Assembly (NCBI GenBank): GCA_964521295.1
Contig: CAZFRF010000001.1
Location: forward strand, 334,146-398,145
Source: an uncultured Gammaproteobacteria bacterium
GTDB taxonomy: Bacteria; Patescibacteriota; Microgenomatia; Levybacterales; UBA12049
Direction of reading: 5' to 3'
Length of the DNA: 64,000 bases
The notes beneath the pieces were generated by a model. That model was not told the DNA's origin. It did no database searches and saw only the letters and a list, made by a program, of their open reading frames with translations. Positions 27,884 through 63,976 of this stretch are shown piece after piece. Position 1 is the stretch's first letter. Each line of letters begins with the position of its first letter. The translations under genes and the position numbers were made by a program.

Positions 27884-27884
27884 A

Positions 27885-38123: not shown

Positions 38124-38124
38124 T

Positions 38125-40540: not shown

Positions 40541-40541
40541 A

Positions 40542-48990: not shown

Positions 48991-50259
48991 CTATAGATTA
49001 AATTTTTTGAAGTAATAAGTCAATAGAGTTATAAGTAAAACTAATGCCGTAGCTAGTGATGAATATATGACCTGGTAAAAGTCGGCGTGAAAAATACTTA
49101 TCAAAGTTATTTGAAAAATTGCAGCAATTATTACAAAATATGAAATCTTAGTTTCATTAAAAGATAAGAAAAAATTTACGCAAACATTAACAAGACTAAA
49201 TATTGTTAAATAAAAACCAAATATACCCAGATACTTAGAAAGCATTAAGTATTCTCTTCCTCCTAAGAATAAATTTATTGTTATTTGAGGGAATAAATAA
49301 TAGAAACCAGTAATTAACATACCTGGTAAAAATACCAATAAAAGAGCAAGGTAAAATAATTTTTTGTATTCAAGCCCTAATGTATGTCTTTTAACAAGAA
49401 GTGGGAACATGACCATAGGGATTGGAAATGTAAAATAAAATATTACTTTACCAATAAGTGACATTCCTGCATAAAAACCAGCGACTTGAGGCTCAAAAAA
49501 ATGCTTAACTAAAATTACATCAGTTGAAGTAAAGGATGTCATAAATAAAACTGTGATAAAAGTAGGAACTGCATATTTAAGCAAAGTTTTTGTCTGATTT
49601 GGAATCTTCTTGTCTGATTCATGAACTAACAATATCTTCCTTAAAGGTACAAATGCCACTAAAAACATTCCAAAAGTCATAAAAAACACAGCCCAAAGAC
49701 CTCCAAATGCCCTATAACCCAGTACTACTAATGCTATACCAAATAGTAATTTAAAAAATCCTCCAGAAATATTTAAAAACGACATGAAGTTAAATCTTAA
49801 AAGTCCCTGAAGAAATGCCATATTTAATGTATTTAAATAAAATGTTGCTATAGCAATTGCAGAAATTAATATATATAAGGAATTGTTTAAATTAAGATAA
49901 CTTGCCAAAGGATTTGCTAAAACAGCACCTAATCCAACAATAAAAATACAAATAAGTAATATTAATTTAAAAAAATAAGTATACAAATGTTTTAATTTTC
50001 CTGTTTGATTGGTAATAAAATAATCTGTAGCAAATTTAATAATTATTGTATTAATTGAACTTGCAGGTACTGCTGCTAAAGTAATTAAAGATAAAAGAGA
50101 AGCAAAAATTGCATAATCCGCATACGAGAGATTTCTAGCCAAAAACCAATTTAAAATAAATGCTAGAAAATTTGCAATAATTGAACCTAAAAATAACTGA
50201 AAACTGCCAGATACTAGCTCATGAGCAGCTACTTTTTTAATAAATTCCATATTAACCAA
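48991..50259 (-). CDS. Wzx-like oligosaccharide flippase (MOP superfamily polysaccharide biosynthesis protein)
   Basis: 422 aa with about 12 TM helices. N-terminal FLGSIIANFLAFILNWFLARNLSYADYAIFASLL is typical of Wzx-family proteins. Confidence 0.55.
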   Translation of the reverse strand: MVNMEFIKKVAAHELVSGSFQLFLGSIIANFLAFILNWFLARNLSYADYAIFASLLSLITLAAVPASSINTIIIKFATDYFITNQTGKLKHLYTYFFKLILLICIFIVGLGAVLANPLASYLNLNNSLYILISAIAIATFYLNTLNMAFLQGLLRFNFMSFLNISGGFFKLLFGIALVVLGYRAFGGLWAVFFMTFGMFLVAFVPLRKILLVHESDKKIPNQTKTLLKYAVPTFITVLFMTSFTSTDVILVKHFFEPQVAGFYAGMSLIGKVIFYFTFPIPMVMFPLLVKRHTLGLEYKKLFYLALLLVFLPGMLITGFYYLFPQITINLFLGGREYLMLSKYLGIFGFYLTIFSLVNVCVNFFLSFNETKISYFVIIAAIFQITLISIFHADFYQVIYSSLATALVLLITLLTYYFKKFNL

Positions 50260-51301
50260 CTACCTTTTTATATACCTCAATCGTTTCTTTTGCAGTTTTT
50301 TTCCAAGAATATTTTTTAACATTTGCGTAACCTCTCCTAACTAGCTCTTCCTGAAGTTTTTTATCACTTAAAACTGCTTTTATACCCTCAGCAATACTAC
50401 GTAAATCAAATGCATCAACAATATAAACACTATTTCCCAATACTTCTTTTAACGACCCCTCTGCTGTTGCTATTACCGGACACCCACAGGCTTGCGCCTC
50501 AAGTGCAGGCAAACCAAACCCCTCATAAAAAGATGGAAGAATGGCTATATCAGCTACATTATATAAATTAACTAAATCGTCTGAATCAACAAATCCCAAT
50601 CTAAATATCTTAGGGTTATCCTTTGCTAACTCGTGCACCCTATTTAAATCATGGTTCCAAGGGTTTTTCTTATCATAGTCCTGATTAACTAAGCTTTTAC
50701 CAACCATAACTAAATTAACCTGAGCAGCATTAACTGCATTAATAAGCCTAGGTAAGTTTTTATTTGCTGTAACGTCGCCAACATAAAGAACAAATTTATC
50801 TGGAAGATTAAATTTCTTTTTTATTTTATCCTTTTCTTCCTTAGACAAATTTAAATTCCTAAATTGCTTGCCAGAGGCTAGATACACAACATCAATTTTC
50901 GCTTCCTTAATTTTTGCAAACTTAATTATATCCTCTTTGGAATTAGATGAATCAGTAATAATTCTCCGTGTTTTTTTAAGAGAAAATTTTTGCATTTGCC
51001 ATTTTAATTCTCCTTTAAAACCTCTAGGAAATAGTTCTTTAAAAACAATTGGCGTTAAATCATGAATGGTAACAACAGTCTTATATCTCTTATAAATAGG
51101 TAATGCCAAGAAAAATGGCTCAAAATATGGAAAATGCACCAGATCTACATTCTTTGGAATAGGTTGACCTGCTTCAAAAAAAACGTATTCGTTTTCTGGA
51201 AAATATTCCAAAAGAGCAGCTTTTAAATTTTCTAAATAAAATCCTACTCCTCTTATTTTATGGCCTGTTTGTAAAGGCGAGATATCAATTGCGATCTTCA
51301 T
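50252..51301 (-). CDS. glycosyltransferase family 4
   Basis: EGFGLPALEAQACGCPVIAT. Confidence 0.75.
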   Translation of the reverse strand: MKIAIDISPLQTGHKIRGVGFYLENLKAALLEYFPENEYVFFEAGQPIPKNVDLVHFPYFEPFFLALPIYKRYKTVVTIHDLTPIVFKELFPRGFKGELKWQMQKFSLKKTRRIITDSSNSKEDIIKFAKIKEAKIDVVYLASGKQFRNLNLSKEEKDKIKKKFNLPDKFVLYVGDVTANKNLPRLINAVNAAQVNLVMVGKSLVNQDYDKKNPWNHDLNRVHELAKDNPKIFRLGFVDSDDLVNLYNVADIAILPSFYEGFGLPALEAQACGCPVIATAEGSLKEVLGNSVYIVDAFDLRSIAEGIKAVLSDKKLQEELVRRGYANVKKYSWKKTAKETIEVYKKVVG

Positions 51302-52473
51302 ATTTTCTTTACTATTAATTTAACACAGCTTACAACTCCGTATATAAGAATTATATATAAAATTGGAATCAAAATCACAAAATATCTTGAAAAAACTTGT
51401 CCTGTACTTAAAAAAACTAAATAAACAAACGCCCAAGTAAGTAAGATGTTTATATTTGTTTTATGAGGAATCAGTTTTAATAAATATAAAGTCATAATTA
51501 TCACGTACCCCACTGTTAAGATAGGCCAGGTAATGGACCATTGAGGATCTGAAATTACTGGTTTATTACCAAACCAAACATACCACTTGTTTAGCAATAA
51601 CAATGGCCAAACTGATAAAGGCAATATCAAAAAACTCTTGTGATAATCAAACACCCATCTTTGAATTCCTAAGAATTTAGAAAATGTATATCCAAATGCA
51701 AACACCCTTATATAGCTAATAAGCAAAACAAAAAGTGAGATGGGTAAAGTAATTGTTAAATGAATCAACCTCTTTTTATCTCTCATAAAAAGCAAAACCA
51801 GATACCAGGCTGCAATTACAGTAAATCCTGATATAAAAAATTTAGTCGCAATAAAAAATCCTAAAAATAGATTAGCTAAAGAGAAATTTAGCAACGATCT
51901 ATTAACTAAACCCTTATTAAAAAAATAAAATGTACCTATTAAAAAAAATAATTGGAAAACATCCATTAGTGGCGTATAAACAAACTGATTTTTAAAAATA
52001 GCCTCAAAGCTTAATAAAGTAACAGGTATCAAAGCTAAAGTTGAATCCTTCAGAACTTGTTTACTTAGAAGATACAGAAAACCTAAGGACAATACTCCAA
52101 AAATCAATACAACCATCGAATCATTGTCAAAAATCAAAGTTGATAAACCAATGAGATATTTTCCCAAGGGTGGAGCATCCGGAACTACTAAAACTGGGCT
52201 TGTTCCTTTTATTAACTTTCCACCTGAATATGAGAATGCAGTCTGATCTGGAATGAATCCCTTTGCGTGCTTACTAACATATTGAGAATCTAAAAAAATT
52301 TTCTCAAGGGATTCAAAATTCTCCCAGTATTTATAATCAAAATATCTGGATTTGTATTGATAAATATTAAGACCAAAATTTAAGCAGATGATTATTATAA
52401 AAATTAAATTAATTAATTTTTTATATTTGGAGATAAATTCTAAGAATTTTTTTGTTTTGAATGCCATTTCCAA
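51298..52473 (-). CDS. polytopic membrane protein (391 aa), candidate GT-C / polymerase-like
   Basis: About 10 TM helices with a periplasmic loop near the N-terminus. No motif I can assign. Confidence 0.4.
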   Translation of the reverse strand: MEMAFKTKKFLEFISKYKKLINLIFIIIICLNFGLNIYQYKSRYFDYKYWENFESLEKIFLDSQYVSKHAKGFIPDQTAFSYSGGKLIKGTSPVLVVPDAPPLGKYLIGLSTLIFDNDSMVVLIFGVLSLGFLYLLSKQVLKDSTLALIPVTLLSFEAIFKNQFVYTPLMDVFQLFFLIGTFYFFNKGLVNRSLLNFSLANLFLGFFIATKFFISGFTVIAAWYLVLLFMRDKKRLIHLTITLPISLFVLLISYIRVFAFGYTFSKFLGIQRWVFDYHKSFLILPLSVWPLLLLNKWYVWFGNKPVISDPQWSITWPILTVGYVIIMTLYLLKLIPHKTNINILLTWAFVYLVFLSTGQVFSRYFVILIPILYIILIYGVVSCVKLIVKKI

Positions 52474-53417
52474 GCTGATTCAATTATATTTTTTAAATCA
52501 GAATATTTCGGAGAAAATCCTAGTTCATTCTTTATTTTTGAACAATCAGCAATTAATTCATTTGCATCTCCCGGCCTACGAGGATGAATTTCAACAGGAA
52601 AATCTTTACCACTAACCTCTTTTACCATTGTTACTACCTCTTTATTCGAGTATCCATTTCCTGTTCCAACGTTATAATCAAAATAACCTTGATCTGTGCT
52701 TAATTTTTGCAGTGCAGATAAATGCGCTTGGGCTAAATCTAGAACATGTACATAATCCCTAACGCAGCTACCATCTTTGGTCTTGTAATCATCGCCAAAC
52801 AATTTAAAAGTAGAACCACTTAAAGCTGCCTTCATAACATTTGGGATTAAATGGGTTTCTGGATCATGAGCTTCCCCCATCGAACCATCTAGAGCTGCTC
52901 CTGCCGCATTAAAATACCTAAGTGCAACACTACTAATTCCCCTTTGCTTTGCGAACCAATACAGTAATCTCTCAACCATCCATTTACTCTCACCATAAGG
53001 ATTTTCTGGATTTTTTGGATGGTTTTCTGGAATAGGAACAGCTTGAGGATTGCCATATACACCTGCTGTTGATGAAAAGATAATTTTAGTTACACCATGC
53101 TTCAACATTGCTTCTAAGAGATTTAGAGTAACAAAAACATTATTGTGAAAGTAATTTTCTGGTTTTTCCATTGATTCTGCCATGGAAATATAGGCTGCAA
53201 AATGAATTACTGCATCAAATTTATGATCAGTAAATGCTCTATTTAAGAATTCAGCATCTAAAATATTACCCTGCAAAAAGACAGCTCTTGAATCCAAATT
53301 TTCTACATGACCCTTTTCCAAACTATCTATTACCACAACCTTATCTCCTCTATCTAAAAGAGTTTTAACCATAAAGCTACCGATATATCCTGCTCCACCT
53401 GTTACAAGTATTTTCAT
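52440..53417 (-). CDS. galE: UDP-glucose 4-epimerase (GalE)
   Basis: MKILVTGGAGYIGSFMV, YGESKWMVE (YxxxK), 325 aa. Confidence 0.8.
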   Translation of the reverse strand: MKILVTGGAGYIGSFMVKTLLDRGDKVVVIDSLEKGHVENLDSRAVFLQGNILDAEFLNRAFTDHKFDAVIHFAAYISMAESMEKPENYFHNNVFVTLNLLEAMLKHGVTKIIFSSTAGVYGNPQAVPIPENHPKNPENPYGESKWMVERLLYWFAKQRGISSVALRYFNAAGAALDGSMGEAHDPETHLIPNVMKAALSGSTFKLFGDDYKTKDGSCVRDYVHVLDLAQAHLSALQKLSTDQGYFDYNVGTGNGYSNKEVVTMVKEVSGKDFPVEIHPRRPGDANELIADCSKIKNELGFSPKYSDLKNIIESAWKWHSKQKNS

Positions 53418-55696
53418 ATCTTCTCTAGTATATATTTTTTTAAGTCAAAATTCGATTTCAAATTATGTTGACTTAACCAACCAATTAAATCATCATACGC
53501 GTTGACTTGATTAACATTAATCCATATCCTATTTTTAGGATTCAAATCTTCACTATCAACGTTACTTAAATTATTCAAATGCAAAATACTATTCTGAATA
53601 TAATTCTTGTCTAGCGAACAATCTTTTCCCAAGCAATTCAAGCCTACTTTTAGTCCATTCTGTGATTGCCTGCCATCGAATGCTATTAATAAGCTAAAAC
53701 CCATACTTGTGTCATATTTTTTATACTTATAATCATAAATTGAAAAATTATCATTTGGATACATAGTGTATAACTCGTTCTTAGCCTTTTGCAAAGCTGC
53801 TACCTGACTTGTCCACGTAAGTGTGCTTAAAACAGATACTAGATTACAACCCAAAACTACTACCACAGCTAAAACTGCTAAACCTTTAATATATTTATTC
53901 TTAAAATCTAAGAAAAATGAGAAAACATTTGCTGTTAATAACAATACTAAAGGAACAAGATACAATAAATAACCCTCAGATCTTTCCCCATGGTAATATC
54001 TATTAATAAAAATAAAAAGAAAAAGAAGAAGTCCCAAAGCTGCAAAAACGCTGGGAATTTTTCTTCTTAAAAGTAAATAGAAAAATACTAATACTGATAA
54101 TACTGCCAGTATCATTCCTATCCAGAAATAATTACCCACAATAAAACTCCAGAAGATTGGAACAAAATTACTAATAAATAATTTCCAACTATTAGGAACA
54201 AATATTCTATATTGTCCAATTAAAAAATAATCTAATAAATTTCTGATATTTGCAAAACTTTGTAAAGAATCCCAATATAATAGAGGCGACATGGGGATGA
54301 AAAAGCCTAAAACAGCTAGTAAAAAAGAAGATATTCTCTTCTTAAAACCTAAGCCCATCACAAGCAATACAGCAGGAAGCAAGACTAATAAATTAATAGC
54401 TTGATAATGAAAAGATAAAGCCATTCCAACCCAAAAACCCACAAATAAACCATGGAATATTTTCTTTTTTTGCCATAATAAAACAAAGCTAATTAAAGCT
54501 AAAGCTGAGAAAGTAGTTATAAATGTATGTTGTCCTAATGACAACGATCTTACAACTAATTGAGGCGAAGTCATTGCGAGCAATCCAACAATTAAGGAAA
54601 ATTTGTGTCCTTTAACTAAATTACCAAGATAAAGCAAGAGACCGAGAGTTAGGATGCTAATTAGCTCAAGCATTAACCAAGGTGCGTTAACCAAAAAGGG
54701 CAGAATTAAATAGGAAAGCATTATAAAACAATAAAATAAACCTCCGAAGACAAATGGACCTGCGCTACTAAAAGAACCAACCAAAGGTATTTCGTGACGT
54801 CTGAGTGCCTCCAAAGCGATCATCGCATCTCTTCCATCATCTCCAACCAAACCCCAACGATTTGGAAAGTTCCACAACCTAATAACCGCACCCACAATGA
54901 TAATCAGTGCAGCAAAAAACTTATATGGTCCTACGTATTTAATGTAAGAAACTGGAAACCTTAATGCAGAAAAAAGAGAAAACGTAAAACCCTGCCAACC
55001 ATCAATAAACCCTTTGTGCCTAATAAAAGTAGTCAGTAACCAATGAGTAGGTCTGATAAACAAATACATAAGCATATAGAAAAATTTCAGAAATAAGTTT
55101 TTCTTTGCTTGCTCTTCTTTTATTTGATTAGCATAAAAATTATTATAAAAATCCCATTTTTTTACATAGTGTTTAAAACTTGCGTAAGGATAATGCAATA
55201 GAGCAGTCTTTAAATAACCTACTTCTCCATCTATTTCCGCTTGCTCATGCACATCTTTTTGTGGAAGCCTACCTTTTCCTTTTCTATATAATCTAATCGT
55301 ATAATCAGGATACTGACCGCCTTTCATCAAGAATCTACCCAAAAACCAATTCTTTCTAGGAATCCAATAGCCATTAAATTCCTTAGGATTTTTTTCTAAA
55401 ATTTCTCTGATTTCAGTTTTTAATTCTGAGCTAACATGCTCATCAGCATCCATTTGCAGAATCCAGTCTTTTGTAGCCATATCAATCGCCATTTGCTTAT
55501 TAATATGAAAATTGGGCTTATTTGTTGTAACTTTTACTTTTGCACCAAAGCTTTTAGCTATATCTACTGTTTTATCAAAAGACGTACCATCTACGATAAT
55601 TATCTCATCAGCAATATCTTTTAAACTTTCTAAACAAGAAGGTAAATTCTTTTCTTCATTAAAAGTAGCAAGTACAACAGATAAAGTTTGTCGCAT
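53414..55696 (-). CDS. fusion protein: N-terminal GT2 (GT-A) domain plus C-terminal polytopic GT-C-like domain (760 aa)
   Basis: N-terminus LSVVLATFNEEKNL, IIIVDGTSFDKT, LQMDADEHV (WaaE/KdtX-like GT2). From about residue 250 onward there are about 12 TM helices, with a first-loop motif GDDGRDAMIALEALR...GPFVFGG shared with 57346..58878 and 58875..60131. Confidence 0.6.
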   Translation of the reverse strand: MRQTLSVVLATFNEEKNLPSCLESLKDIADEIIIVDGTSFDKTVDIAKSFGAKVKVTTNKPNFHINKQMAIDMATKDWILQMDADEHVSSELKTEIREILEKNPKEFNGYWIPRKNWFLGRFLMKGGQYPDYTIRLYRKGKGRLPQKDVHEQAEIDGEVGYLKTALLHYPYASFKHYVKKWDFYNNFYANQIKEEQAKKNLFLKFFYMLMYLFIRPTHWLLTTFIRHKGFIDGWQGFTFSLFSALRFPVSYIKYVGPYKFFAALIIIVGAVIRLWNFPNRWGLVGDDGRDAMIALEALRRHEIPLVGSFSSAGPFVFGGLFYCFIMLSYLILPFLVNAPWLMLELISILTLGLLLYLGNLVKGHKFSLIVGLLAMTSPQLVVRSLSLGQHTFITTFSALALISFVLLWQKKKIFHGLFVGFWVGMALSFHYQAINLLVLLPAVLLVMGLGFKKRISSFLLAVLGFFIPMSPLLYWDSLQSFANIRNLLDYFLIGQYRIFVPNSWKLFISNFVPIFWSFIVGNYFWIGMILAVLSVLVFFYLLLRRKIPSVFAALGLLLFLFIFINRYYHGERSEGYLLYLVPLVLLLTANVFSFFLDFKNKYIKGLAVLAVVVVLGCNLVSVLSTLTWTSQVAALQKAKNELYTMYPNDNFSIYDYKYKKYDTSMGFSLLIAFDGRQSQNGLKVGLNCLGKDCSLDKNYIQNSILHLNNLSNVDSEDLNPKNRIWINVNQVNAYDDLIGWLSQHNLKSNFDLKKYILEKI

Positions 55697-55708: not shown

Positions 55709-57349
55709 CTAATTAATCTTTCTTTTTACAAATAGCTTAATAAAAAAAGCTAATAGTACAACTCCTAAGGCAAATATGGAAAGGGCATCAGCAAGGAGCC
55801 TTAACTTAGTTTCTCCAAAAACAACCCTAACTAAATATTCACCTTTGGACAGATTAAAAAGCATAATTCCTCTATGTTCTGGATTCTGAAACTCTACATC
55901 TACAATTTGACCGTTGGCATAAATTTTCCAACCCGGAAAAAATAAAGTATTTTCCTTTATTTGCGCATCTTGCAAAACATCTATTTTATATTCATGTAAA
56001 TTAGCGGTTCGCCTAATCTCTTGAATATTAGCTTCACCCTCAATAACTTCTACATGCGCTGCTGGCCTTTTCTCCATAAACCTGACCGACCAAATAGGAG
56101 CACTTTCTCCTGTATCAGTTGTACTGTTATATATTCCAGTATAAAATTCTGCATTCTTATACAAATAACCCTTTGGGGTAAAATAAGGAATACTAACTAC
56201 TAGTACTACCGTAATAACAATTGCGCTAATTAATTTATGATTAATTTTTTTAGCTAAAACTTCTACTACATAGACAGTTAAAACCGCTGTTGTAAAAACA
56301 ATTAAAGCAATAAATCTCCAAGGGAACTGAAAATTTTGCAAAAGAATTATTTTATCCCAAATAAAATTTGAATAGGGTAACATTATAAAAATTGAAAGAA
56401 GAGTAAAGAGAATAAGCGTTGCAATCATAAGTAACTTAATTCGATCTTTTCTAAATACATATCCAGCAATAAATGATCCCAGCAAAACAAACCACTGAAA
56501 TATTCCAAGCTGTACTGTAAAAGCACCTGATCCACCGAAATCCCATGGTCCATAAATTAACCTAGGTATGTTTACAAAATTATTTATATATCCACCTTTA
56601 GTTACGATGTTTCTTAAAGTAAATTTTCCTTCTAAAAGGGCTGGCACCCAAAAGAAAGCAGATAGCATAAAACCTAGAGAAAAACCGACAATAAATTTAA
56701 TTAAATATTCTTTCTTGTTTTTTAAATTAATACTTAAGATTAATCCATATAAAAATATAAATGGAATACTTATTAAACTGATTGCATTATGAGCTAAGAT
56801 CAAAAGTGCTAAAGACAAAGAAATAAAAATATAATTATTAATTGTTTGTTTTTTAGAAAGCTTATAAATAAACAGCAAAGTAAGTGGAATGAATGCAAAT
56901 GCCAAATTCTCGCCTATGTCCCCCCTAACATACAATTCAACAAAGCGATAAGGCGCATAAGTATATAAAAATGCTCCTATAAGAGAAGAATTTCTTGATG
57001 AAAATTGAGATAACCATAGATACATAAATATAAATGAAAGAACCATCCCCATTCCCAAAACTATTTTTACTGAATCAACTAAAGAGAAACCTACGAAATG
57101 AAAAGCTGATGCAATATATGAAGGTAAAGGATATAAAAATTGTAAAACTGGGTGTCCATAGCCCCAATTTAAATTCTCAGCCCACCTAGGGATTATTACC
57201 CCATCGTTAAGTGCAGAATAAAAATTAGCAATTCTGGCCACATGATCTTGACCATCATGGGTAATTGGTAATCCTTGATGAAATAAAGAAATTACAGGAA
57301 TAAACAATAAGATTAAAAATAGTACGCTAAATAATTTTTTTGATATCAT
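55709..57349 (-). CDS. YfhO-like GT-C-fold membrane glycosyltransferase (546 aa)
   Basis: N-terminal HDGQDHVARIANFYSALNDGVIIPRWAENLNWGYGHPVLQFLYPLPSY, about 11 TM helices, a periplasmic beta domain and a C-terminal TM helix. Confidence 0.5.
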   Translation of the reverse strand: MISKKLFSVLFLILLFIPVISLFHQGLPITHDGQDHVARIANFYSALNDGVIIPRWAENLNWGYGHPVLQFLYPLPSYIASAFHFVGFSLVDSVKIVLGMGMVLSFIFMYLWLSQFSSRNSSLIGAFLYTYAPYRFVELYVRGDIGENLAFAFIPLTLLFIYKLSKKQTINNYIFISLSLALLILAHNAISLISIPFIFLYGLILSINLKNKKEYLIKFIVGFSLGFMLSAFFWVPALLEGKFTLRNIVTKGGYINNFVNIPRLIYGPWDFGGSGAFTVQLGIFQWFVLLGSFIAGYVFRKDRIKLLMIATLILFTLLSIFIMLPYSNFIWDKIILLQNFQFPWRFIALIVFTTAVLTVYVVEVLAKKINHKLISAIVITVVLVVSIPYFTPKGYLYKNAEFYTGIYNSTTDTGESAPIWSVRFMEKRPAAHVEVIEGEANIQEIRRTANLHEYKIDVLQDAQIKENTLFFPGWKIYANGQIVDVEFQNPEHRGIMLFNLSKGEYLVRVVFGETKLRLLADALSIFALGVVLLAFFIKLFVKRKIN

Positions 57350-58878
57350 AACTCTCTTTTCTGAACCACAAAACCACTAGGTAAAGTTTTTGTCCACTCC
57401 ACCTTTCCATCTTTAATCACTGTTTCTAACCATCCTTTATAACTCCATGGTTTTGAAGGATCAGGCTCCATTAATAGATAAAAGGTTCCTTTTTTTTCTT
57501 TATAAGGTATATAATCGTATTTTGCTTTTCCATACCACCATAATAAATAATCGTATGGATAAGTATATACTGGAGGACTAAATACCAAGAGACCAAACGG
57601 TTTTTTATTGGCATCTTTGTATATAAAATCTAAGACATCAATTTTACCTCTTATCTTAGCTATTCCACCATAATCAGGGTAATCATAAATTGTTGTTGCA
57701 ACTGCACTGTATATTCCAATTGGAAAATTTATAAAAATATATAAAAGTGCAATTAAAAAAATCTTAGTATTGTTCTTAAATGAACTATAAACTATGTAAC
57801 AAGAAAGAAGTAAATAGGCAACATTTAAATGCTGTAAGTAAATTCCGTAAACCGTATTCCTAAGTGGAGAAAAAACTAAATAAGTAACTGGGATCAAAAA
57901 TAATAGAAAGCTAAAGAAATATTTTAGATATTTTACTTTCTCTTTTCTTATGTAATAAACAGAAACAATAACAATAAATAAAAACACTAATAGATATAAT
58001 GACTGCAAAGGAAAAGTACTACTAAAACTATGTATAAATGAATTAAAGTGATCTATGAAAAAATTTGTTTCATTCACGTTATGATTAGTAGCTTTATGTT
58101 TAAAAATATAGGTAATAATTCCACGAAGACCTAGAAAATCATGTCTTACTTCAAATAAAAACATTGGGAGATATCCGAACACATAACCTACAAATAGAAA
58201 AATGTAGTTTTTAATGTGTTTCTTAAAAAGGAAAATTGAATAAATTAATAAAGTAAGAGATAAAGGAACTGCAATACCAAGCTCAAAGTTATATATAAAT
58301 CCTGAAAAAAATGCTGCTAAAAATGTAAATAATAATGATTTATTCTTCGAAAACAAATAAGTAAAATAAAATGTCAGAAGTATAAAAAATGTTGGTGGAT
58401 TTGGACTCCAGATAAACCTTGATTGAGCAGTGAAAATTGGCGCAATACTAATAAGTAACGAGAGTAATAAGCCTATCCACCGGTTAAACATCTTTAATCC
58501 TAAATAATAACCAAAAAGAATAGAAATTATTCCAAAGCCAAACATTAAAAATATTCCACCCTGAGGGTTTCCATTAAACAAAATAAAAACAATACTCAGC
58601 ATGTAGTAATATAATGGCCCATGAAAAACACCTGAGATTCCTGCGTCCCCCGCTCCAATTTCAGTTCCTATTAAGATAAATTTATGATCTACAACAATTT
58701 TCTTGGCTGCAAGCATTTCCCTTCCTTGATCAAAGAGAAATAAAGGGTTTTGATTAAGCAATTCAACGCAACGAGGAAATATTGCTAAAAAAACAACAGT
58801 AAATGCTATTAATATAAATAAAATATTAGACTTTTTTTTAGCAAGTATTAAAATCCAATTATAAAAACTGTTAATCAT
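57346..58878 (-). CDS. polytopic GT-C-fold (ArnT/PMT-like) glycosyltransferase
   Basis: FDQGREMLAAKKIV...GPLYYY first-loop motif. About 12 TM helices. Confidence 0.5.
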   Translation of the reverse strand: MINSFYNWILILAKKKSNILFILIAFTVVFLAIFPRCVELLNQNPLFLFDQGREMLAAKKIVVDHKFILIGTEIGAGDAGISGVFHGPLYYYMLSIVFILFNGNPQGGIFLMFGFGIISILFGYYLGLKMFNRWIGLLLSLLISIAPIFTAQSRFIWSPNPPTFFILLTFYFTYLFSKNKSLLFTFLAAFFSGFIYNFELGIAVPLSLTLLIYSIFLFKKHIKNYIFLFVGYVFGYLPMFLFEVRHDFLGLRGIITYIFKHKATNHNVNETNFFIDHFNSFIHSFSSTFPLQSLYLLVFLFIVIVSVYYIRKEKVKYLKYFFSFLLFLIPVTYLVFSPLRNTVYGIYLQHLNVAYLLLSCYIVYSSFKNNTKIFLIALLYIFINFPIGIYSAVATTIYDYPDYGGIAKIRGKIDVLDFIYKDANKKPFGLLVFSPPVYTYPYDYLLWWYGKAKYDYIPYKEKKGTFYLLMEPDPSKPWSYKGWLETVIKDGKVEWTKTLPSGFVVQKREL

Positions 58879-60131
58879 TTTTCTTTACCGGTTAAATAAT
58901 AAAAGATATAAATTTCAGGTACCCCCTGTCTCCATTCGGGTATAATTCCTTCTTTAACGATCTTCTGCGCATCAATAGTTTTAAATTTTAATCCGTTTAG
59001 CTCCTTATAGTTAATATAATTAGCTATATTTGTATAAGCGATTGTAAATAACGAAACGATAATTACAGCCTTTATCAATCGACTTCTAAGGCTAAAGATA
59101 GTATACAAAATAAATGCCAAAATAAACAAAACAATAAATCTATTGATTGCAAAATAATAGTCAGTTAGCTCTCCACTGTAGGTGGTAAAAACAAACCAAG
59201 GAATAATAAACCACAGAGCTACTAAATAGCAGAATGCAATCTGATTTCTGGTTTTTGATTTATAGAGTTGTAAAAAATAAAAAACTGGAATAAGCAAGAA
59301 CTTAATAGGAACTAACTTATCCCAAACAAGATAGGGGTTAAATTGTATCAATGCATCACTTGCAAGTTGCAATAATCTTCTTAAATGAAAACCATGATAA
59401 TTCTGACTTAAATAATTTCCCAAAGCATTACCAGATTTGTCTACAAACTGATGTACCAAGTTTGGGATTAGCCAAACAAAAAAGAATGGAAATGAAATTA
59501 GTATGTATTTCAACATTTCTTTAGTCCGAGGAAAAAAAGGTAAGCTTAAAAGAATAATAATTGGGAAAAAGATTGCTGTAAAATGAAGATTAAACGCTAT
59601 TCCTGTTAAAAATGCTAAAGGAATTACTTTTTTAGTCTCTCCTTGAATTACTCTATATAAAAAGTAAAAGATGAGCAAAGAGATTGATGGAATAAAAGCA
59701 ACTGGCCATTGTACTCGATCAAATTGAATTGCTGCAGTTGTAAACGTATTCAAAAATACTGCAAAAATTGCAACTTTTTCTGAAAACAGTTTTTTTGTAA
59801 CAAAATAAATTACCCAAAAAGTAAAAATGCTCGTTACTCCAGCCAAAATTGGAGATGCAATGGGATTTAAATTTGTTAAGAAATAAAATACAGCAACTAA
59901 ATAATAATATGCAGGTCCAATAAATATTCCACTATTGCCTTTTGCAACCATTCCTAGAAGTGGATACTCATGATTAACTAAAATCACCTTAGCTGCCCAA
60001 GCATTATCTACCTGATCATATCCAAAACCATTTTTTATGTCTAATTGATAAAAACGTAAAAACAATTCAAAGAGGAAAATTATTAAAACCAATAATAAAA
60101 GCTTATTTTTAAATATTTTTTTTAATTTCAT
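58875..60131 (-). CDS. polytopic GT-C-fold (ArnT/PMT-like) glycosyltransferase
   Basis: YDQVDNAWAAKVIL...GPAYYY first-loop motif. Paralog of 57346..58878. Confidence 0.5.
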   Translation of the reverse strand: MKLKKIFKNKLLLLVLIIFLFELFLRFYQLDIKNGFGYDQVDNAWAAKVILVNHEYPLLGMVAKGNSGIFIGPAYYYLVAVFYFLTNLNPIASPILAGVTSIFTFWVIYFVTKKLFSEKVAIFAVFLNTFTTAAIQFDRVQWPVAFIPSISLLIFYFLYRVIQGETKKVIPLAFLTGIAFNLHFTAIFFPIIILLSLPFFPRTKEMLKYILISFPFFFVWLIPNLVHQFVDKSGNALGNYLSQNYHGFHLRRLLQLASDALIQFNPYLVWDKLVPIKFLLIPVFYFLQLYKSKTRNQIAFCYLVALWFIIPWFVFTTYSGELTDYYFAINRFIVLFILAFILYTIFSLRSRLIKAVIIVSLFTIAYTNIANYINYKELNGLKFKTIDAQKIVKEGIIPEWRQGVPEIYIFYYLTGKEK

Positions 60132-61777
60132 TTTTCAACTATAACAATAGCTGGACTTCCATCCAGATTCTTAATCACTTTAGTTGCAAATTTTGGAGCA
60201 ATTTCTCGAGAAGTTGCGACAATCATTGTGTCTCTTAATTTATAATCTTGTTCCCAATCTATGTTTCTAAAAACAAATTTATCAAATTGATGATGATAAT
60301 CAAATTGACCACTACTATTTACACCAATCTTTTGATATTCCGCTGGTGGATACTTCAAGTAAAAGAGGAAGAACATGTAGGATTTATCCATGGGCTCCCT
60401 ATCGGAAATAATAATTTTGTCATATTTGTCATACTTAGCTACCACTTCGGCTACAGCCTCTTTATAACCATATTGCCAATCTTGGCTAGTATAATAATTT
60501 AACTGTACAAAATATTGATTAAGATAATATGTGAAATTGAATATCGCAAGACAAAGGAAAATTGAAATTGCAAAATATTTTATTCGTTTATACTGGAGAA
60601 TAAAATATAAACTACTTACAAGTCCTACGGCTGACAATATTTGCCAAGTTGGTAAAAAGTTTAACGTTCTTACCGCATGCGGTACTCCGGTGGTAATTGA
60701 TGCAGGAACAGGTGCTAGTAAAAACCATCCCAAAATAGTCAATTTTGCTTTTTTGTCTAAATCAGAAAATAGTAATTTATATATACCTATTAAAATAAAT
60801 GGTAGCTCAAAAAGATAAATAATTCCGACATTGGGCGCATGATGTCTTAAAATATCTCCTGAAGTAAAAAGCCAATTCAAATCAAAATGAGAGATATATC
60901 CATATACAATTGTCTTAGCATAAACAACCCTTCTATTATCTAAAACTAAACCTAAATAATCATTGTTTGCCTTATCTCGCTCTAATTTTTGAACATTATT
61001 TTTAAGAATTTCAGTTTGATAATTAAAAATACTTGTTCCTTTGACTCTTAATAACGCTGATTTGTCTGTTAATATATAAAATATCATTGGCGAAATTACA
61101 ACGAAACCAACAACAACTGCTAAGATGAGATATTTCTTTTTTAAAGCAAATAGGGCTTTCCTAAAAACAAAAATTAATAATAACGCAAGCAACGGAGTAA
61201 AAACTTTGTCGCTTTGATATGTGTAGATACTAAATGCGCCCATTGTTGCAGAAAGCCCCAATAACAATGGCTTTTTCAAACCTTTTACAAAAAAGAGGGC
61301 CATTAAAATATTAAATGCATCTCCGACATTTGATTCAAAACCAATTCTTGAAAATTGTAAGGACCACGGTGAGATAGCAAACAGCAAAGATGAAATCAAA
61401 GCAAGTTGATCTTTATATTTATATTTTTCAAACAATTCTCTGATTAGGAAAAACAAGACAATAGTTGCAATTACTCCAAATACAGCCGAAGGGAGCCTAA
61501 CCGCAAAAGTATTCAAACCAAATACAGCAACGCTAGGAATTGCTAAATATGCATACATTGCAGGTTTATAGTCATTAAACGATCTTAGGACTACTGGAAA
61601 CAGCTTTCCATACTCGTCTCTACCTGTATGCAAAAGCGAATAGGCATCATAACCCAATGCTACCTCATCCCAATCAGGTGAAGGTGGGATGTTTCCAAGC
61701 TGCCACAATCTTAAAATAACTGACAGTACAATTATGCCAATAAAAAGTAACCAAGTAATTTTTTTATTTATATTCAT
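60128..61777 (-). CDS. glycosyltransferase family 39/83-like (ArnT/PMT_2) GT-C membrane glycosyltransferase
   Basis: PDWDEVALGYDAYSLL...NDYKPAMYAYL matches the ArnT/PMT DE...KPPLxYW first-loop pattern. Confidence 0.6.
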   Translation of the reverse strand: MNINKKITWLLFIGIIVLSVILRLWQLGNIPPSPDWDEVALGYDAYSLLHTGRDEYGKLFPVVLRSFNDYKPAMYAYLAIPSVAVFGLNTFAVRLPSAVFGVIATIVLFFLIRELFEKYKYKDQLALISSLLFAISPWSLQFSRIGFESNVGDAFNILMALFFVKGLKKPLLLGLSATMGAFSIYTYQSDKVFTPLLALLLIFVFRKALFALKKKYLILAVVVGFVVISPMIFYILTDKSALLRVKGTSIFNYQTEILKNNVQKLERDKANNDYLGLVLDNRRVVYAKTIVYGYISHFDLNWLFTSGDILRHHAPNVGIIYLFELPFILIGIYKLLFSDLDKKAKLTILGWFLLAPVPASITTGVPHAVRTLNFLPTWQILSAVGLVSSLYFILQYKRIKYFAISIFLCLAIFNFTYYLNQYFVQLNYYTSQDWQYGYKEAVAEVVAKYDKYDKIIISDREPMDKSYMFFLFYLKYPPAEYQKIGVNSSGQFDYHHQFDKFVFRNIDWEQDYKLRDTMIVATSREIAPKFATKVIKNLDGSPAIVIVEK

Positions 61778-63413
61778 ATGCTACTAACGCAGTTTTACCA
61801 TTTAATAAATTAAAGGTTTTTTTAATAACAATATTTTCTGGCAAAGTGTAAGGAGTATTTATATATAAAACATTTTTCTTACTAGACAAACTATAATCAA
61901 ATTTGCCAGGAAAAAGATATTTTCCTACTCTTTTTACTGTTACGAAACCAAAAGGATCTCTCTCTATTTCTGAGTTATTTCTAAAATATTCAGGGGACAC
62001 TTTATCATAGAACAAATGATACGCGTAAGGCCTACCTAATGCAGTTGTTATGACGATATTATCATATTTTGCTTCAACTGAACTTGCGTACGCCAGAGAC
62101 TCTTTATATCCATATTGCCATTCCCCTGAATAATCAATTGCATAATGCTTACCTAAAGAATGATAGAAATATATAAAGTTTCCTATTAAAAGAATTAAAA
62201 GTACTGACATAATTAAATTCTGTCGCTTTTTAAATAGATTCAGAAAGTTAACAAAACCATAAGCAACAAGAATTTGAAATGTCGGCAGCGTTGTTTCTAT
62301 CCTTAATGCATGCGGTGTTTCTCTTGCCAATCCTGCAGGTATAATTCCAAACAAAAGCCAGACAGGAATAAGCCACCACCCTCCTTCTCTTTTTTTAAAT
62401 AGTAAAAAAGCACCCCCAACAAAAAAGACTATATCCCAAATATATAACTGTCCTACATCCTGAACAGAAAATTTAGGATTACCATCTCCCCTAATAAACA
62501 AGAAGTTTGGAGATAAATTATCAAAATAACGTTTGAAAAATTCTAAGGTATATAAAACCCTACGATTATGTATTACCTTAGACCAATCTGCATTATTGTC
62601 ATTAGCAACTTGTTGGTTTGCTGAAGTTATTACTGTTGAATCAGAGAAAATATTTACTTCTTTATACCTAAGCCCAGCTTGCGGAGAAAGCAGAAACGGA
62701 AAAAGCGGTAGAAAAACTACCAAACCTAAAACCAGTGCTAAAATCATCTGGGTTTTAACTTTTATTAATCTTTTCCAATAAAATAAACTTAAAATTACTA
62801 CTAAAAACGGTGAAACAATCCTTGCGGTATTAAATACATACATTGAGGCAGCAAAAAAGAAAGCCGAAACCAACAAATACCATTTTTTATTCCCTATTCC
62901 CGCTAGGAAAGCATAAACACCAGTTACTATAAAAAAAGTGGCAATATTTGCTTCAAAAGCAGCTCTTGAGAGCATAATATGCCAAGGGGAAATTGCTAAA
63001 AATAAACTTGTAAACAAAGCATATTTTTCTTTATTTTCTGAATTTGCAAATAATCTTTTAACCAAAAAATATGATATTAATACAGTTAATACTCCGAAAA
63101 ATGCCGAAGGGAATCTGGTAGCAAATTCTGTTAATCCAAAAATCTTTACGGGAATAATTGCTAAATATGCATAAAGTGGTGGTTTAAAATCTCCAAATGA
63201 CTCAAGATAATCAAAAGGTAGTACCCTACCGAACTCATCTTTTGCATCTATACCTAATGCGTATGCATTATATCCCCAGGCTGTTTCGTCCCAAGTAAGA
63301 CTAGGTGGGTTAGTTGAAATCTGATTAAATCTTAAAAATGTAGCAATAAGTAGGATTAAAAGAAGTAAAATAATATTTTTATATTTTCTAATCATTTTTC
63401 TACAAGAAACCAC
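61764..63413 (-). CDS. glycosyltransferase family 39/83-like (ArnT/PMT_2) GT-C membrane glycosyltransferase; tandem paralog of 60128..61777
   Basis: LTWDETAWGYNAYALG...GDFKPPLYAYL. Same length (549 aa) and same motif order as the neighbour. Confidence 0.6.
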   Translation of the reverse strand: MVSCRKMIRKYKNIILLLLILLIATFLRFNQISTNPPSLTWDETAWGYNAYALGIDAKDEFGRVLPFDYLESFGDFKPPLYAYLAIIPVKIFGLTEFATRFPSAFFGVLTVLISYFLVKRLFANSENKEKYALFTSLFLAISPWHIMLSRAAFEANIATFFIVTGVYAFLAGIGNKKWYLLVSAFFFAASMYVFNTARIVSPFLVVILSLFYWKRLIKVKTQMILALVLGLVVFLPLFPFLLSPQAGLRYKEVNIFSDSTVITSANQQVANDNNADWSKVIHNRRVLYTLEFFKRYFDNLSPNFLFIRGDGNPKFSVQDVGQLYIWDIVFFVGGAFLLFKKREGGWWLIPVWLLFGIIPAGLARETPHALRIETTLPTFQILVAYGFVNFLNLFKKRQNLIMSVLLILLIGNFIYFYHSLGKHYAIDYSGEWQYGYKESLAYASSVEAKYDNIVITTALGRPYAYHLFYDKVSPEYFRNNSEIERDPFGFVTVKRVGKYLFPGKFDYSLSSKKNVLYINTPYTLPENIVIKKTFNLLNGKTALVAYEYK

Positions 63414-63976
63414 ATATTTAGATAAGCCTCAAAATAACCCTTTTTCATTTTTGACCTACTAAAACCACTACTTTCAATTATATCTAATATCTTGTTCTGG
63501 GTGTAATGGCTTTTATGATCGTGTATTTCTTCTGAACTAATAAGTCCAAGACGTGCCATGTGATGCAAAAGCTTATCTGACCAAGGAGAAGGAGTTGTTA
63601 TTATCAATCTTCCCTTTGGTTTTAACACTCTATTTATTTCTTTTATAGCTGATATTAGTTTTTCTTTCTCTATGTGTTCAAAAACAGCAAGCATAGTAAC
63701 TACTTCAAAAGAATTATCCTTAAAGGGAAGCTTTTGTTTTGCAATATCTACTTTTTGCAGATTAATGCCTTTTATTTGAGTGTTAACAGCAGGATCTATA
63801 CCAAATTTATTATTAAATTTTGTAGATGTTAAGAAATGAGGATAAAAACCACAACCAATATCCAAAATGCTTCCATCTCTAAATGAATTTGGAATAAATT
63901 CATTTGCCTTTTGAGCTCGTTTTTCTGACAAAAACTTTTCTAATAAACCTGAACCACGGGTGAAATTAGTAGTCAT
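63392..63976 (-). CDS. class I SAM-dependent methyltransferase
   Basis: ILDIGCGFYPHF motif I. Motif II VVTMLAVFEH. Confidence 0.65.
   Translation of the reverse strand: MTTNFTRGSGLLEKFLSEKRAQKANEFIPNSFRDGSILDIGCGFYPHFLTSTKFNNKFGIDPAVNTQIKGINLQKVDIAKQKLPFKDNSFEVVTMLAVFEHIEKEKLISAIKEINRVLKPKGRLIITTPSPWSDKLLHHMARLGLISSEEIHDHKSHYTQNKILDIIESSGFSRSKMKKGYFEAYLNMWFLVEK

Follow-up and report, generated by a model that had tools for sequence, protein, structure and literature searches.

Predicted GT-C membrane glycosyltransferases of a large glycan gene cluster in a Candidatus Levybacteria genome

Gene content of the locus

The window, i.e., the whole stretch of 64,000 nucleotides analyzed here, belongs to a Candidatus Levybacteria genome (CPR/Patescibacteria) of about 0.94 Mb and contains, from ~13 to 64 kb, an operon-like glycan gene cluster which lies on the minus strand and runs on past the window end. 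A first-pass annotation had singled out five genes of this cluster (B1, B2, C1, C2 and F below) as an array of glycosyltransferase paralogs. The five ORFs are all present on the minus strand at the coordinates given for them, but the window carries in total 11-12 GT-C-like genes, seven of which follow one another without a break. Pfam domain scanning of the window proteins (ORFs of at least 120 aa, E <= 0.1) returned PMT_2, PTPS_related or GT-C_AftD matches in 10 genes, F being just under the cutoff. The predicted GT-C genes are as follows:

61764..63413, minus strand: B1, GT-C glycosyltransferase of family B (PMT_2/PMT type); Pfam PMT_2 49.6 bits, PMT 40.2 bits
60128..61777, minus strand: B2, GT-C glycosyltransferase of family B, conserved partner of B1; PMT_2 50 bits
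58875..60131, minus strand: C1, GT-C glycosyltransferase of family C, the shortest (418 aa); PMT_2 32.5 bits
57346..58878, minus strand: C2, GT-C glycosyltransferase of family C, accessory gene; PMT_2 26.1 bits, exactly at the cutoff
55709..57349, minus strand: Y, GT-C of a third family (PTPS_related/YfhO type), between C2 and F; PTPS_related 53.4 bits (cutoff 26.4), YfhO 17.3 bits, below cutoff
53414..55696, minus strand: F, GT2 (GT-A) domain (residues ~1-200) fused through amphipathic linker helices to a family-C GT-C module (~256-760); Glycos_transf_2 72.7 bits, PMT_2 23.6 bits (below cutoff)
51298..52473, minus strand: G51, PMT_2-type GT-C of 391 aa; PMT_2 39.7 bits
45801..47120, minus strand: G45, PMT_2-type GT-C; PMT_2 45.9 bits, hhalign to family B 2e-6 to 1e-7
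34749..38195, minus strand: AftD-like large GT-C of 1148 aa; GT-C_AftD 37 bits, hhalign to the Y family 9e-7 to 2e-7
27053..29057, minus strand: YfhO-type GT-C split in two ORFs (27885..29057 and 27053..27883), beside an ArnC-like GT2; hhalign of 27885..29057 to group OG23 94%, 1e-7, Pfam YfhO C-terminus in 27053..27883
19061..20497, minus strand: G19, PMT_2-type GT-C; PMT_2 36.9 bits

Adjacent genes had been reported to overlap by 4-14 nt, and the junctions indeed measure 4, 14, 4, 4 and 4 nt; such ATGA-type overlaps, taken alone, are consistent with co-transcription as a single operon. The equal length noted for B1 and B2 holds for the ORFs as called, but is partly a coincidence of ORF calling: the longest B1 ORF opens at GTG 63413, while the true start is probably ATG 63395 (543 aa), which yields a canonical ATGA overlap with the upstream stop (63392-63395) and gives the length called for a 96%-identical relative. 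The other cluster genes of relevance are:

63392..63976, minus strand: SAM-dependent methyltransferase (MT) directly upstream of B1; Pfam Methyltransf_23/11, orthogroup in 16 loci
52440..53417, minus strand: NAD-dependent sugar epimerase (GalE-like), conserved neighbour of the F-type GT2; Epimerase/GDP_Man_Dehyd families of the ortholog in relatives L001 and L082, orthogroup in 49 loci
50252..51301, minus strand: GT4 (GT-B) cytoplasmic glycosyltransferase; Glycos_transf_1 109.8 bits
48991..50259, minus strand: Wzx-type (Polysacc_synt) flippase, candidate exporter of lipid-linked sugars or repeat units; Polysacc_synt 43.9 bits
48216..48956, minus strand: short GT2; NCBIfam PgaC_IcaA 2.5e-13, ArnC-type 2.8e-11, PpgS 8.5e-11 (residues 9-214, model 4-203 of 226), DPhHxTase 1.5e-6, all far below curated cutoffs
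39147..42376, minus strand: dTDP-rhamnose genes, i.e., RmlD (39147), RmlC (40010), dehydratase-like (40542) and nucleotidyltransferase (41570); RmlD_sub_bind 245 bits, dTDP_sugar_isom 218 bits, Epimerase, NTP_transferase
26105..27040, minus strand: ArnC/GtrB/PgfS-like GT2 with two C-terminal hydrophobic segments (235-253, 265-283); NCBIfam ArnC-type E 4.4e-54 (residues 2-289, model 8-293 of 316), PgfS 1e-40, both below equivalog cutoffs
12903..14660, minus strand: initiating phosphoglycosyl transferase (PGT, 12903..13568; Bac_transf 211 bits) and mannose-1-phosphate guanylyltransferase (13572..14660; NTP_transferase plus ManC beta-helix)

Homology, fold and first-loop motifs

The proposed paralogy of B1 and B2 is well founded, the two proteins sharing 35.9% identity over 468 aa (BLAST, E 5.8e-80) with a profile-profile alignment (hhalign) at E 4e-123 across 542 columns. 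Their two reported motifs, WDE.A.GY.AY and D[YF]KP[AP].YAYL, occur twice each in the six-frame translation of the window, in B1 and B2 only, and W-D-E and D..K-P...Y.Y are 100% conserved across both orthogroups. Within the second family, BLAST aligns C1 with C2 at 29.7% identity over 155 aa (E 3e-9), and hhalign does so at E 5e-29 over 416 columns. While the C-terminal half of F (residues 256-760) gave no BLAST link to C1 or C2, hhalign connects it with C1 (E 7e-15) and C2 (1e-15), and only at 1e-2 to 1e-4 with B1 and B2; the membrane-protein negative control, a flippase, scored a probability of 0-1% versus every group. Homology within both families is genuine. Families B and C are themselves related (E ~1e-10; C1 to B, 1e-9). 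The division into two families, although real, was incomplete, since it missed Y, G51 and further GT-C-like genes. Y, assigned to the PTPS_related/YfhO type (PF10131 or PF09586 required) through its above-threshold PTPS_related match, aligns with the YfhO-type groups OG19 and OG23 at E 1e-107 to 1e-137 and with C2 at 1e-6; G51, whose orthogroup is found in 7-8 loci, has weak profile links to B2 and C2 (3e-5).

The first-loop motif ascribed to family C required correction. In its literal form the pattern has no match, but, loosened to [DE][QD].[RD][DEN], it occurs in exactly three places, namely C1, C2 and F. Likewise, GP.YYY is present in C1 and C2 (and invariant in the C1 orthogroup), whereas F carries GGLFYC. 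An acidic motif stands directly after the first transmembrane segment in all five proteins: WDE in B1 and B2, DQ in C1 and C2 (100% conserved within both orthogroups) and DDGRD in F (85-100% conserved in the GT-C module), behind a first strong transmembrane segment at residues 260-278. Overall, WDE, DQ, DDGRD and GP are 85-100% conserved, and the topology would place the loop with the acidic motif on the outer face of the membrane.

AlphaFold2 models were obtained for B2 (pTM 0.80) and C2 (pLDDT 87.3, pTM 0.87), both of which are predicted to adopt the GT-C fold. Every Foldseek match of these models at E <= 1e-3 is a GT-C enzyme, transporters appearing only at E > 0.04 with a TM-score of ~0.1. 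Significant matches include STT3, AglB, PglB, ArnT, ALG12 and ALG9, with Emb, Aft and Pmt matched more weakly; B2 reaches E 1e-7 with STT3/AglB and TM-scores of 0.53/0.54 with ArnT, and C2 TM-scores of 0.56/0.58 with ALG12 and 0.57/0.54 with ArnT. By modelled fold and first-loop acidic motif, the array is predicted to belong to the GT-C superfamily. Since the B2 and C2 profiles gave no sequence match in the PDB and identity to every solved GT-C is 10-16%, the putative catalytic residues are assigned by analogy.

Proposed role, the B1-B2 pair and its evolution

Several genes of the cluster would be consistent with the use of polyprenyl-phosphate sugars as donors. The ArnC/GtrB-like GT2 (26105..27040) is a candidate polyprenyl-phosphate sugar synthase, which would make the donor of the GT-C enzymes, and the short GT2 (48216..48956) is a possible second one, of the PpgS/ArnC/DPM1 type. 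L082, a relative at 96% identity, has an AglJ/PpgS/dolichyl-P-hexose-type GT2 of 236 aa (E 6e-38), also of predicted activity, directly upstream of MT-B1-B2; such DPM1/AglJ-like GT2s near B1 are known from relatives, the corresponding place lying outside the window here, and a related orthogroup of ~237 aa is found in 42 loci. The function of F as a donor synthase is uncertain because its GT2 part, with GmaR and SunS as best PDB matches, is nearer to these protein/peptide glycosyltransferases than to GtrB; its GT2 and GT-C parts are fused in 7 loci only and encoded by separate genes elsewhere. Besides ManC, RmlA-D, the epimerase, the PGT and the Wzx-like flippase, the cluster encodes an IctB/O-antigen-ligase-like protein, GT4s and acetyltransferases. 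From its Rml, PGT, Wzx and GT4 genes, the same cluster would seem to make a rhamnose-containing polymer.

The best explanation as a whole, to which we give a probability of roughly 0.65, is that the five array proteins and at least six more of the window are GT-C-fold integral-membrane glycosyltransferases, part of a large (~50 kb) minus-strand cluster serving envelope or surface glycan synthesis, and that they glycosylate envelope glycopolymers or surface proteins on the extracytoplasmic side, with polyprenyl-phosphate sugars as donors. On the basis of homology and gene context, cluster genes would supply cytoplasmic sugar nucleotides (GDP-mannose, dTDP-rhamnose and epimerised UDP-hexoses), from which GT2/GT-A enzymes of the ArnC/GtrB and DPM1/AglJ types would put single sugars on polyprenyl phosphate. 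After flipping of these lipid-linked sugars across the membrane, the GT-C enzymes, through the acidic motif (family B, WDE; family C, DQ or DxGRD) that their first extracytoplasmic loop carries, would transfer the sugar to an acceptor on the outer face, which may be a wall polysaccharide with rhamnose, a lipoglycan, surface proteins or several of these, each copy presumably having its own sugar, linkage or acceptor specificity.

Throughout the sampled Levybacteria, B1 and B2 form a conserved, overlapping core pair, with B1 as the gene just upstream of B2 in 76/77 loci from species and 54/55 from metagenomes (130/132 together). Within the array, they are under equal and the strongest constraint (dN/dS 0.035 and 0.029, approximate values since dS is partly saturated at 0.6-2.4), and both keep their catalytic motifs. 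A refinement of the preferred reading, rather than an alternative to it, is that the two proteins form an obligate heterodimer, which would account for the pair always being kept together. We regard it as a tentative idea, possible though rather doubtful. ArnT, the best overall structural match, is not known to require a paralogous partner, and two sequential steps on one acceptor would explain the adjacency equally well. Precedents nevertheless exist in Pmt1-Pmt2 (6p25) and in the adjacent paralogs EmbA and EmbB, which act as a heterodimer (PMC2885622, PMC7305291; PDB 7bvf is among the C2 matches).

Another reading takes B1 and B2 for bacterial protein O-mannosyltransferases (GT39, Pmt-like) whose targets are secreted or surface proteins (pilins or S-layer proteins, for example) and not polysaccharide. 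The B1 match to PMT (PF02366) above the cutoff of 22.7 bits, the invariant DE motif of B1 and B2 typical of PMT loop 1, the NCBI name of the orthologs ("glycosyltransferase family 39 protein") and the GDP-mannose synthesis and DPM1/AglJ-like GT2 genes of the cluster argue for it, as does the in silico prediction of pilin glycosylation in CPR bacteria, an otherwise unexplored subject (PMC11623550). However, B2, like C1 and C2, is below the PMT threshold, the C-terminal PMT_4TMC domain was found in none of the proteins (Pfam, E <= 0.1), and the fold matches to Pmt1, Pmt2 and Pmt4 are partial and weak (TM 0.28-0.38, E > 1e-2, ~270-540 columns), compared to TM ~0.5 and E 1e-5 to 1e-7 for ArnT, STT3 and ALG12. 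The neighbouring genes are polysaccharide machinery (PGT, Wzx, Rml, GT4s, acetyltransferases). We consider this reading unlikely.

The first-pass annotation had proposed instead a local duplication followed by divergence, with possible combinatorial or variable surface glycosylation. It is true that the genes are adjacent and paralogous, that GT-C content differs even between relatives at 93-96% identity and that C1, C2 and Y change at the protein level 2-3 times faster than B1 and B2. Yet B1 and B2 are separate, reciprocal, monophyletic orthogroups across about 80 species, with orthologs 49-68% identical versus 31-38% for the B1/B2 paralogs, and this, together with their near-universal adjacency, makes the duplication ancient. 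Among 353 within-locus pairs of GT-C paralogs, identity has a maximum of 48.8% and a median of 31.9%, and a search at the DNA level found neither repeats, inverted ones included, nor gene-conversion tracts. Approximate dN/dS across the array genes is 0.029-0.110 (C2, 0.10), with no sign of diversifying selection at the whole-gene level, and the ATGA-type overlaps suggest co-expression rather than switching. Recent tandem duplication with rapid divergence, serving combinatorial or switchable glycosylation within a strain, is thus largely refuted and very improbable. What stands of the proposal is variation between lineages. Indeed, 31 gene orders were found in 56 loci/species, with a median of 8 GT-C genes per 21.6 kb (range 3-12); the C1 orthogroup is present in 30 loci, and C2 has no tblastn match in L002, a relative at 93% identity in B2. 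The genes of the C and Y families and the additional ones of family B are accessory, being kept, lost or reordered species by species, and such strong differences fit lineage-variable surface glycosylation. Diversified specificity is likewise probable, since retained motifs and purifying selection make each copy probably functional with a specificity of its own. Gene content, rather than recent duplication or switching, would hence set the lineage-specific glycan. That C1, C2, Y and G51 are redundant or decaying relics, as their patchy distribution, their loss in close relatives, the borderline Pfam score of C2 and the apparently split neighbouring YfhO-type gene might suggest, is highly implausible given that all are intact ORFs with approximate dN/dS of 0.04-0.11, first-loop motifs invariant inside orthogroups, a confident complete GT-C fold predicted for C2 and orthologs at 49-65% identity persisting in many species.

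Comparison with known glycosylation systems

The protein O-mannosyltransferases (GT39), including yeast Pmt1-Pmt2 and actinobacterial Pmt, resemble the B1-B2 pair by the DE motif in loop 1, the PMT match of B1, the automatic annotation of orthologs and the pairing of paralogs, but differ by the PMT_4TMC domain and, in eukaryotes, the MIR domains, which are lacking here, by the partial, weak structural match and by the polysaccharide-oriented gene context of the array. ArnT (GT83) matches both models with the highest mutual TM-scores (0.52-0.57). It has a similar size and layout (transmembrane bundle and small C-terminal alpha/beta domain) and shares the PMT_2 family with the array proteins, and the cluster encodes an ArnC-like GT2. 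Identity is however 11-13%, and orthology to ArnT was rejected, no NCBIfam ArnT match and no PDB sequence match being obtained even with profiles; the likeness is one of fold (TM ~0.53). CPR bacteria are generally described as devoid of LPS/lipid A, so the acceptor must differ from that of ArnT.

The mycobacterial embCAB/Aft system likewise includes ancient, diverged GT-C paralogs arranged in tandem; adjacent Emb proteins work together, and one envelope glycan is assembled by many GT-Cs that use polyprenyl-phosphate sugars. The window, too, has an AftD-like GT-C. Nevertheless, Emb proteins, of about 1,050-1,100 aa with large carbohydrate-binding domains, contrast with the ArnT-sized B and C proteins (418-549 aa), their fold match is weak (E > 1e-2), and no decaprenyl-phosphoarabinose pathway was identified.

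Finally, multi-component (three-component) transmembrane glycosylation has been described in Gram-positives and in O-antigen modification, with GtrA/B/C, CsbB-GtcA-YfhO, GacI-GacK-GacL and CsdAB/CD/EF (PMC8035078; PMC11127046). The cluster differs from these systems by a far higher GT-C density (11-12 genes within ~50 kb, in a genome of ~0.94 Mb), by the lineage-wide tandem pair B1-B2, by the GT2-GT-C fusion F, by a single flippase of Wzx type with no GtrA-type one among the scanned window ORFs, and by its CPR host. As in these systems, a predicted GT-A/GT2 polyprenyl-phosphate sugar synthase gene stands beside PMT_2- or YfhO-type GT-Cs with an acidic extracellular-loop motif, within a locus of rhamnose-polysaccharide type that also encodes a Wzx-type flippase, and there are several GT-A/GT-C pairs per genome. 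The array is an unsurprising instance of an already known kind of system.

Gene run and surrounding glycan cluster

The five ORFs that the first-pass annotation described as tandem arrays of divergent GT-C paralogs (B1, B2, C1, C2 and F) are all present exactly where it placed them, on the minus strand, within a run of closely packed genes that extends as far as a flippase gene.

Genes of the run, in order from the window's end
63392..63976, minus strand: MT, methyltransferase upstream of B1
61764..63413, minus strand: B1, family-B GT-C paralog (PMT_2 type)
60128..61777, minus strand: B2, family-B GT-C paralog (PMT_2 type)
58875..60131, minus strand: C1, family-C GT-C paralog
57346..58878, minus strand: C2, family-C GT-C paralog
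55709..57349, minus strand: Y, GT-C of the PTPS_related/YfhO type, between C2 and F
53414..55696, minus strand: F, GT2-GT-C fusion (C-terminal GT-C half, Fc)
52440..53417, minus strand: Epi, sugar epimerase
51298..52473, minus strand: G51, another PMT_2 protein of GT-C type
50252..51301, minus strand: GT4, cytoplasmic GT-B enzyme
48991..50259, minus strand: Flp, Wzx-type flippase

The reported gene overlaps are likewise real (14 nt for B1/B2; 4 nt each for MT/B1, B2/C1, C1/C2 and C2/Y), most of them being ATGA stop/start junctions. Regarding the equal length ascribed to B1 and B2, it holds for the longest ORFs, but that of B1 opens with a GTG at 63413, within the upstream MT gene. An alternative ATG at 63395 creates an ATGA overlap and a 543-aa protein, in agreement with the 543-aa gene call in L082, a relative's locus whose B2 is 96% identical to that of the window. 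This ATG is most likely the true start of B1, which makes the agreement in length partly an accident of how the ORFs were called. The minus strand carries 54 of the 55 window ORFs of at least 120 aa. GC content is ~30% over the window, dropping from ~0.34 over the initial 14 kb to 0.25-0.30 inside the glycan cluster, and every 2-kb bin has a negative GC skew.

From ~13 kb to its end, the window forms a single glycan cluster encoding an initiating phosphoglycosyl transferase and ManC, several GT4 and GT2 enzymes, acetyltransferases, RmlA-D-type proteins, an IctB/O-antigen-ligase-like protein, the Wzx-type flippase and the GT-C proteins. A dcw-type block (Mur ligase, PBP transpeptidase, MraW and MraZ) together with RecO occupies 1467..6239 and 9645..10193, and the glycan cluster thus abuts core cell-wall genes. 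Eleven GT-C-like genes were counted in the window, with 32103..33827 as a weak twelfth candidate.

GT-C-like genes outside the run
45801..47120: PMT_2 GT-C-like gene
34749..38195: AftD-like GT-C gene
27053..29057, minus strand: split YfhO-like gene
19061..20497: PMT_2 GT-C-like gene

The split gene consists of a YfhO N-terminal part (27885..29057; hhalign 94%) and a YfhO C-terminus (27053..27883; Pfam positions 758-835) separated by 1 nt, an arrangement that a frameshift, a pseudogene or a truly bipartite gene might each explain. It adjoins the ArnC/GtrB-like GT2 gene at 26105..27040. Two large membrane proteins of the cluster have no Pfam family: the 574-aa product of 32103..33827 (minus strand), which profiles connect only weakly with family C (75%, 3e-5), and the 1058-aa product of 20532..23708 (minus strand), with a weak IctB/O-antigen-ligase-like match. 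The cluster also holds a small cytidylyltransferase gene (30952..31515, minus strand), whose product, we presume, may resemble glycerol-3-phosphate cytidylyltransferase (TagD) and hints at a phosphate-containing, teichoic-acid-like substituent.

Two GT2 genes of the window look like candidates for polyprenyl-phosphate sugar synthases: 26105..27040, with a full-length match to ArnC/GtrB/PgfS (E 4e-54) and a pair of hydrophobic segments at the C-terminus, and 48216..48956, with weaker, sub-cutoff PpgS/DPM1-type matches. In L082, a 236-aa GT2 resembling AglJ, PpgS and dolichyl-P-hexose synthases lies directly upstream of MT-B1-B2, at a position past the window's end; a related orthogroup of ~237-aa GT2 proteins occurs in 42 loci. 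The L082 segment upstream of MT (1..8386) encodes this AglJ/DPM1-like GT2, a 307-aa GT2, a 752-aa YfhO, a GT4, a small DUF5652 protein (opposite strand), a 778-aa YfhO and another GT2. The L082 cluster therefore runs on upstream of MT, and the window truncates the locus. No GtrA-type flippase and no LCP-type ligase were found among the scanned window ORFs. The GT2 domain of F was also considered as a GtrB-type donor synthase, a role for which its sequence is unsupportive, its best matches being GmaR and SunS.

Paralogy, fold and enzyme class

Between B1 and B2, identity is 35.9% over 468 aa (E 5.8e-80), and the profile-profile E-value is 4e-123 over 542 columns. Each of the two B-family motifs occurs exactly twice in the six-frame translation of the whole window, in B1 and B2 only, and the key residues W-D-E and D-x-K-P...Y-x-Y are invariant in 30-31 orthologs of each protein. 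For C1 and C2, BLAST detects a weak relationship (E 3e-9 over 155 aa) and profile comparison a strong one (E 5e-29 over 416 columns). Fc has no BLAST link and a Pfam PMT_2 score of 23.6 bits, below the cutoff of 26.1; its profile aligns far better to C1 (E 7e-15) and C2 (E 1e-15) than to B1/B2 (just 1e-2 to 1e-4), so that the grouping of C1, C2 and the C-terminal half of F in one family was correct. In these comparisons (hhalign, covering all but a few minor orthogroups), the Wzx-type flippase, a compositionally similar membrane protein used as negative control, never exceeded 1% probability. The first-loop motif proposed for family C needs amendment: its literal pattern has no match, the loosened form [DE][QD]x[RD][DEN] finds exactly C1, C2 and F, and the GPxYYY element is not in F. 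Families B and C are both real, and related to each other (E 1e-9 to 1e-12), but a description as two families is incomplete, as the run also holds Y and G51.

A PDB sequence search with the B2 and C2 profiles gave no match even at E <= 1, and their classification therefore had to use predicted structures. NCBIfam offered no family-level assignment for seven GT-C proteins, the sole match being a weak, sub-threshold Agl23 hit for B1. The AlphaFold2 models were usable for B2 (pLDDT 76.6, pTM 0.80) and good for C2 (pLDDT 87.3, pTM 0.87). All significant Foldseek matches of both were GT-C enzymes (STT3, AglB, PglB, ArnT, ALG12 and ALG9, then AftA/B, Emb, Pmt and DPY19), at only 10-16% sequence identity; the best mutual TM-scores were with ArnT (0.52-0.57, B2 and C2) and ALG12 (0.56/0.58, C2 only). 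In both models, a bundle of membrane helices leads into a small alpha/beta domain at the C-terminus, and the conserved acidic motifs directly follow the first TM helix, at the position of the GT-C catalytic loop.

B1 and B2 could possibly be GT39 protein O-mannosyltransferases, given their DE motif, the PF02366 match of B1 and the mannose supply in the cluster; nevertheless, they lack the PMT_4TMC domain and resemble Pmt only weakly in structure, and the gene context is oriented towards polysaccharides.

The B1-B2 pair and its neighbours across Levybacteria

The comparison covered 80 species-representative loci, two contigs found via a protein index and 80 metagenome loci (a few of which duplicate genome loci), with ORFs called and then classed by BLAST, clustering and HMMs. 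The named relatives are Candidatus Levybacteria/Levyibacteriota (CPR, Microgenomates). Many GTDB species representatives with the locus bear the title 'uncultured Gammaproteobacteria bacterium' (TPA binchicken), and other locus-bearing assemblies are titled Pacearchaeota, Saccharimonadales, Limnocylindrales or Acidiferrales; such record titles, those of L002, L003, L007, L011 and L012 among them, look unreliable for taxonomy.

In 76 of 77 genome loci, and likewise in 54 of 55 metagenome loci, the gene directly upstream of B2 is B1; as the loci were selected through B2, this means that wherever B2 is found, B1 adjoins it. Of the two exceptions, one has a small ORF called between the two genes and the other a further B-family gene inserted there. 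Such invariant adjacency would be explained if the two proteins formed a heterodimer, by analogy with EmbA-EmbB or Pmt1-Pmt2.

Identity of B1 orthologs is 49.5-100% with B1 of the window and just 31-38% with its B2, the reciprocal being true of B2 orthologs, and a neighbour-joining tree of 35 B1 and 35 B2 sequences resolves one clean clade for each. Judged by their sequences, B1 and B2 are ancient paralogs. An origin by recent local duplication, serving combinatorial or switchable glycosylation within a strain, is largely refuted by these separate clades, by purifying selection, and by the absence of high-identity pairs and repeats: identity among 353 within-locus GT-C paralog pairs peaks at 48.8% (median 31.9%), and searches of 51-64 kb for DNA repeats, inverted repeats and conversion tracts returned only short AT-rich chance matches, the sole other DNA match being a 32-nt, in-register one that encodes the shared WQYGYKE motif.

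Selection was estimated by the Nei-Gojobori method between the window and L082. With dS of 0.6-1.5 (higher against L002, whose B2 is 93% identical), the dN/dS ratios are approximate: B1 0.035, B2 0.029, C1 0.037, C2 0.100, Y 0.110, F 0.039, Epi 0.030, G51 0.050 and GT4 0.052. All nine genes are under purifying selection and, among the GT-C genes, the core pair is the most constrained. That accessory GT-C copies are decayed or redundant is contradicted by this constraint and by their intact motifs.

What stands of the proposed variable glycosylation is that GT-C gene content differs among species and close relatives. Full 21.6-kb loci contain a median of 8 GT-C genes (range 3-12), and across 56 loci the genes from B2 to the conserved F-type GT2 are arranged in 31 different orders, the interval being empty in 11 loci. 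The close-strain comparison of copy number rests on L082 and L002, a metagenome scan anchored on B2 having yielded no relative above 66% identity. L082 has exactly the gene order of the window. In L002 (11647..14567, corresponding to 55709..60131 of the window), Y follows C1 by ~30 nt and C2 is absent altogether; as many more distant species have C2 orthologs, it was probably lost there rather than gained in the window's lineage. Identity of L002 to the window is only 73% for C1, against 90-93% for B1 and B2; accessory genes thus outpace the core pair in both evolution and turnover. The GT2-GT-C fusion (~760 aa), encoded at 53414..55696 (minus strand) in the window, occurs only in the seven loci nearest to it, and is present in L001, L002, L003, L018, L020 and L082. 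Outside this clade, a GT2 of ~260 aa and a family-C GT-C of ~500 aa are encoded by separate, often adjacent genes, and by this distribution the fusion is recent and local.

Proposed roles and known systems

The data establish homology, fold, motif conservation, synteny and constraint, and from them we infer donor type, topology, acceptor and individual specificities: each GT-C would attach one specific sugar, through a specific linkage, to surface proteins and/or an envelope glycopolymer. One or more conserved steps would fall to B1-B2, and lineage-specific decorations would come from the accessory enzymes. A bolder reading, which we consider improbable as a whole (probability of about 0.15), is that B1-B2 form an obligate heteromeric GT-C enzyme of the EmbA-EmbB or Pmt1-Pmt2 kind, at the unvarying centre of a glycosylation island common to all Levybacteria. 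Accessory GT-C genes shuffled between species would then produce lineage-specific surface glycans that control how these ultra-small, episymbiont-like bacteria attach to hosts or evade phages, and F would be a self-contained unit that makes and uses its own lipid-linked donor.

To our knowledge, the envelopes of CPR/Patescibacteria, and the way they are glycosylated, have hardly been characterised. In the literature, we found no description of such GT-C arrays in CPR, the nearest reports being the account of a complete Microgenomates genome, which mentions 29 glycosyltransferase genes only briefly (PMC7143001), and a 2024 preprint on Saccharibacteria pili that calls glycosylation processes 'unexplored' (PMC11623550). 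The B1-B2 pair, the adjacent DPM1-like synthase and the GT2-GT-C fusion are testable targets that could help to establish what CPR bacteria display on their surface, with a bearing on host recognition and phage resistance. The locus reveals no new mechanism and no new protein fold, and automatic annotation already names its orthologs 'glycosyltransferase family 39 protein' or 'ArnT-like'. Firmicutes and Actinobacteria offer well-known examples of multi-GT-C glycosylation systems; what is noteworthy here is the density of GT-C genes in a Levybacteria genome of ~0.94 Mb, more than 5% of whose DNA lies in one glycan cluster with 11-12 such enzymes, together with the GT2-GT-C fusion and a lineage-wide B1-B2 core, around which the accessory set varies from species to species.
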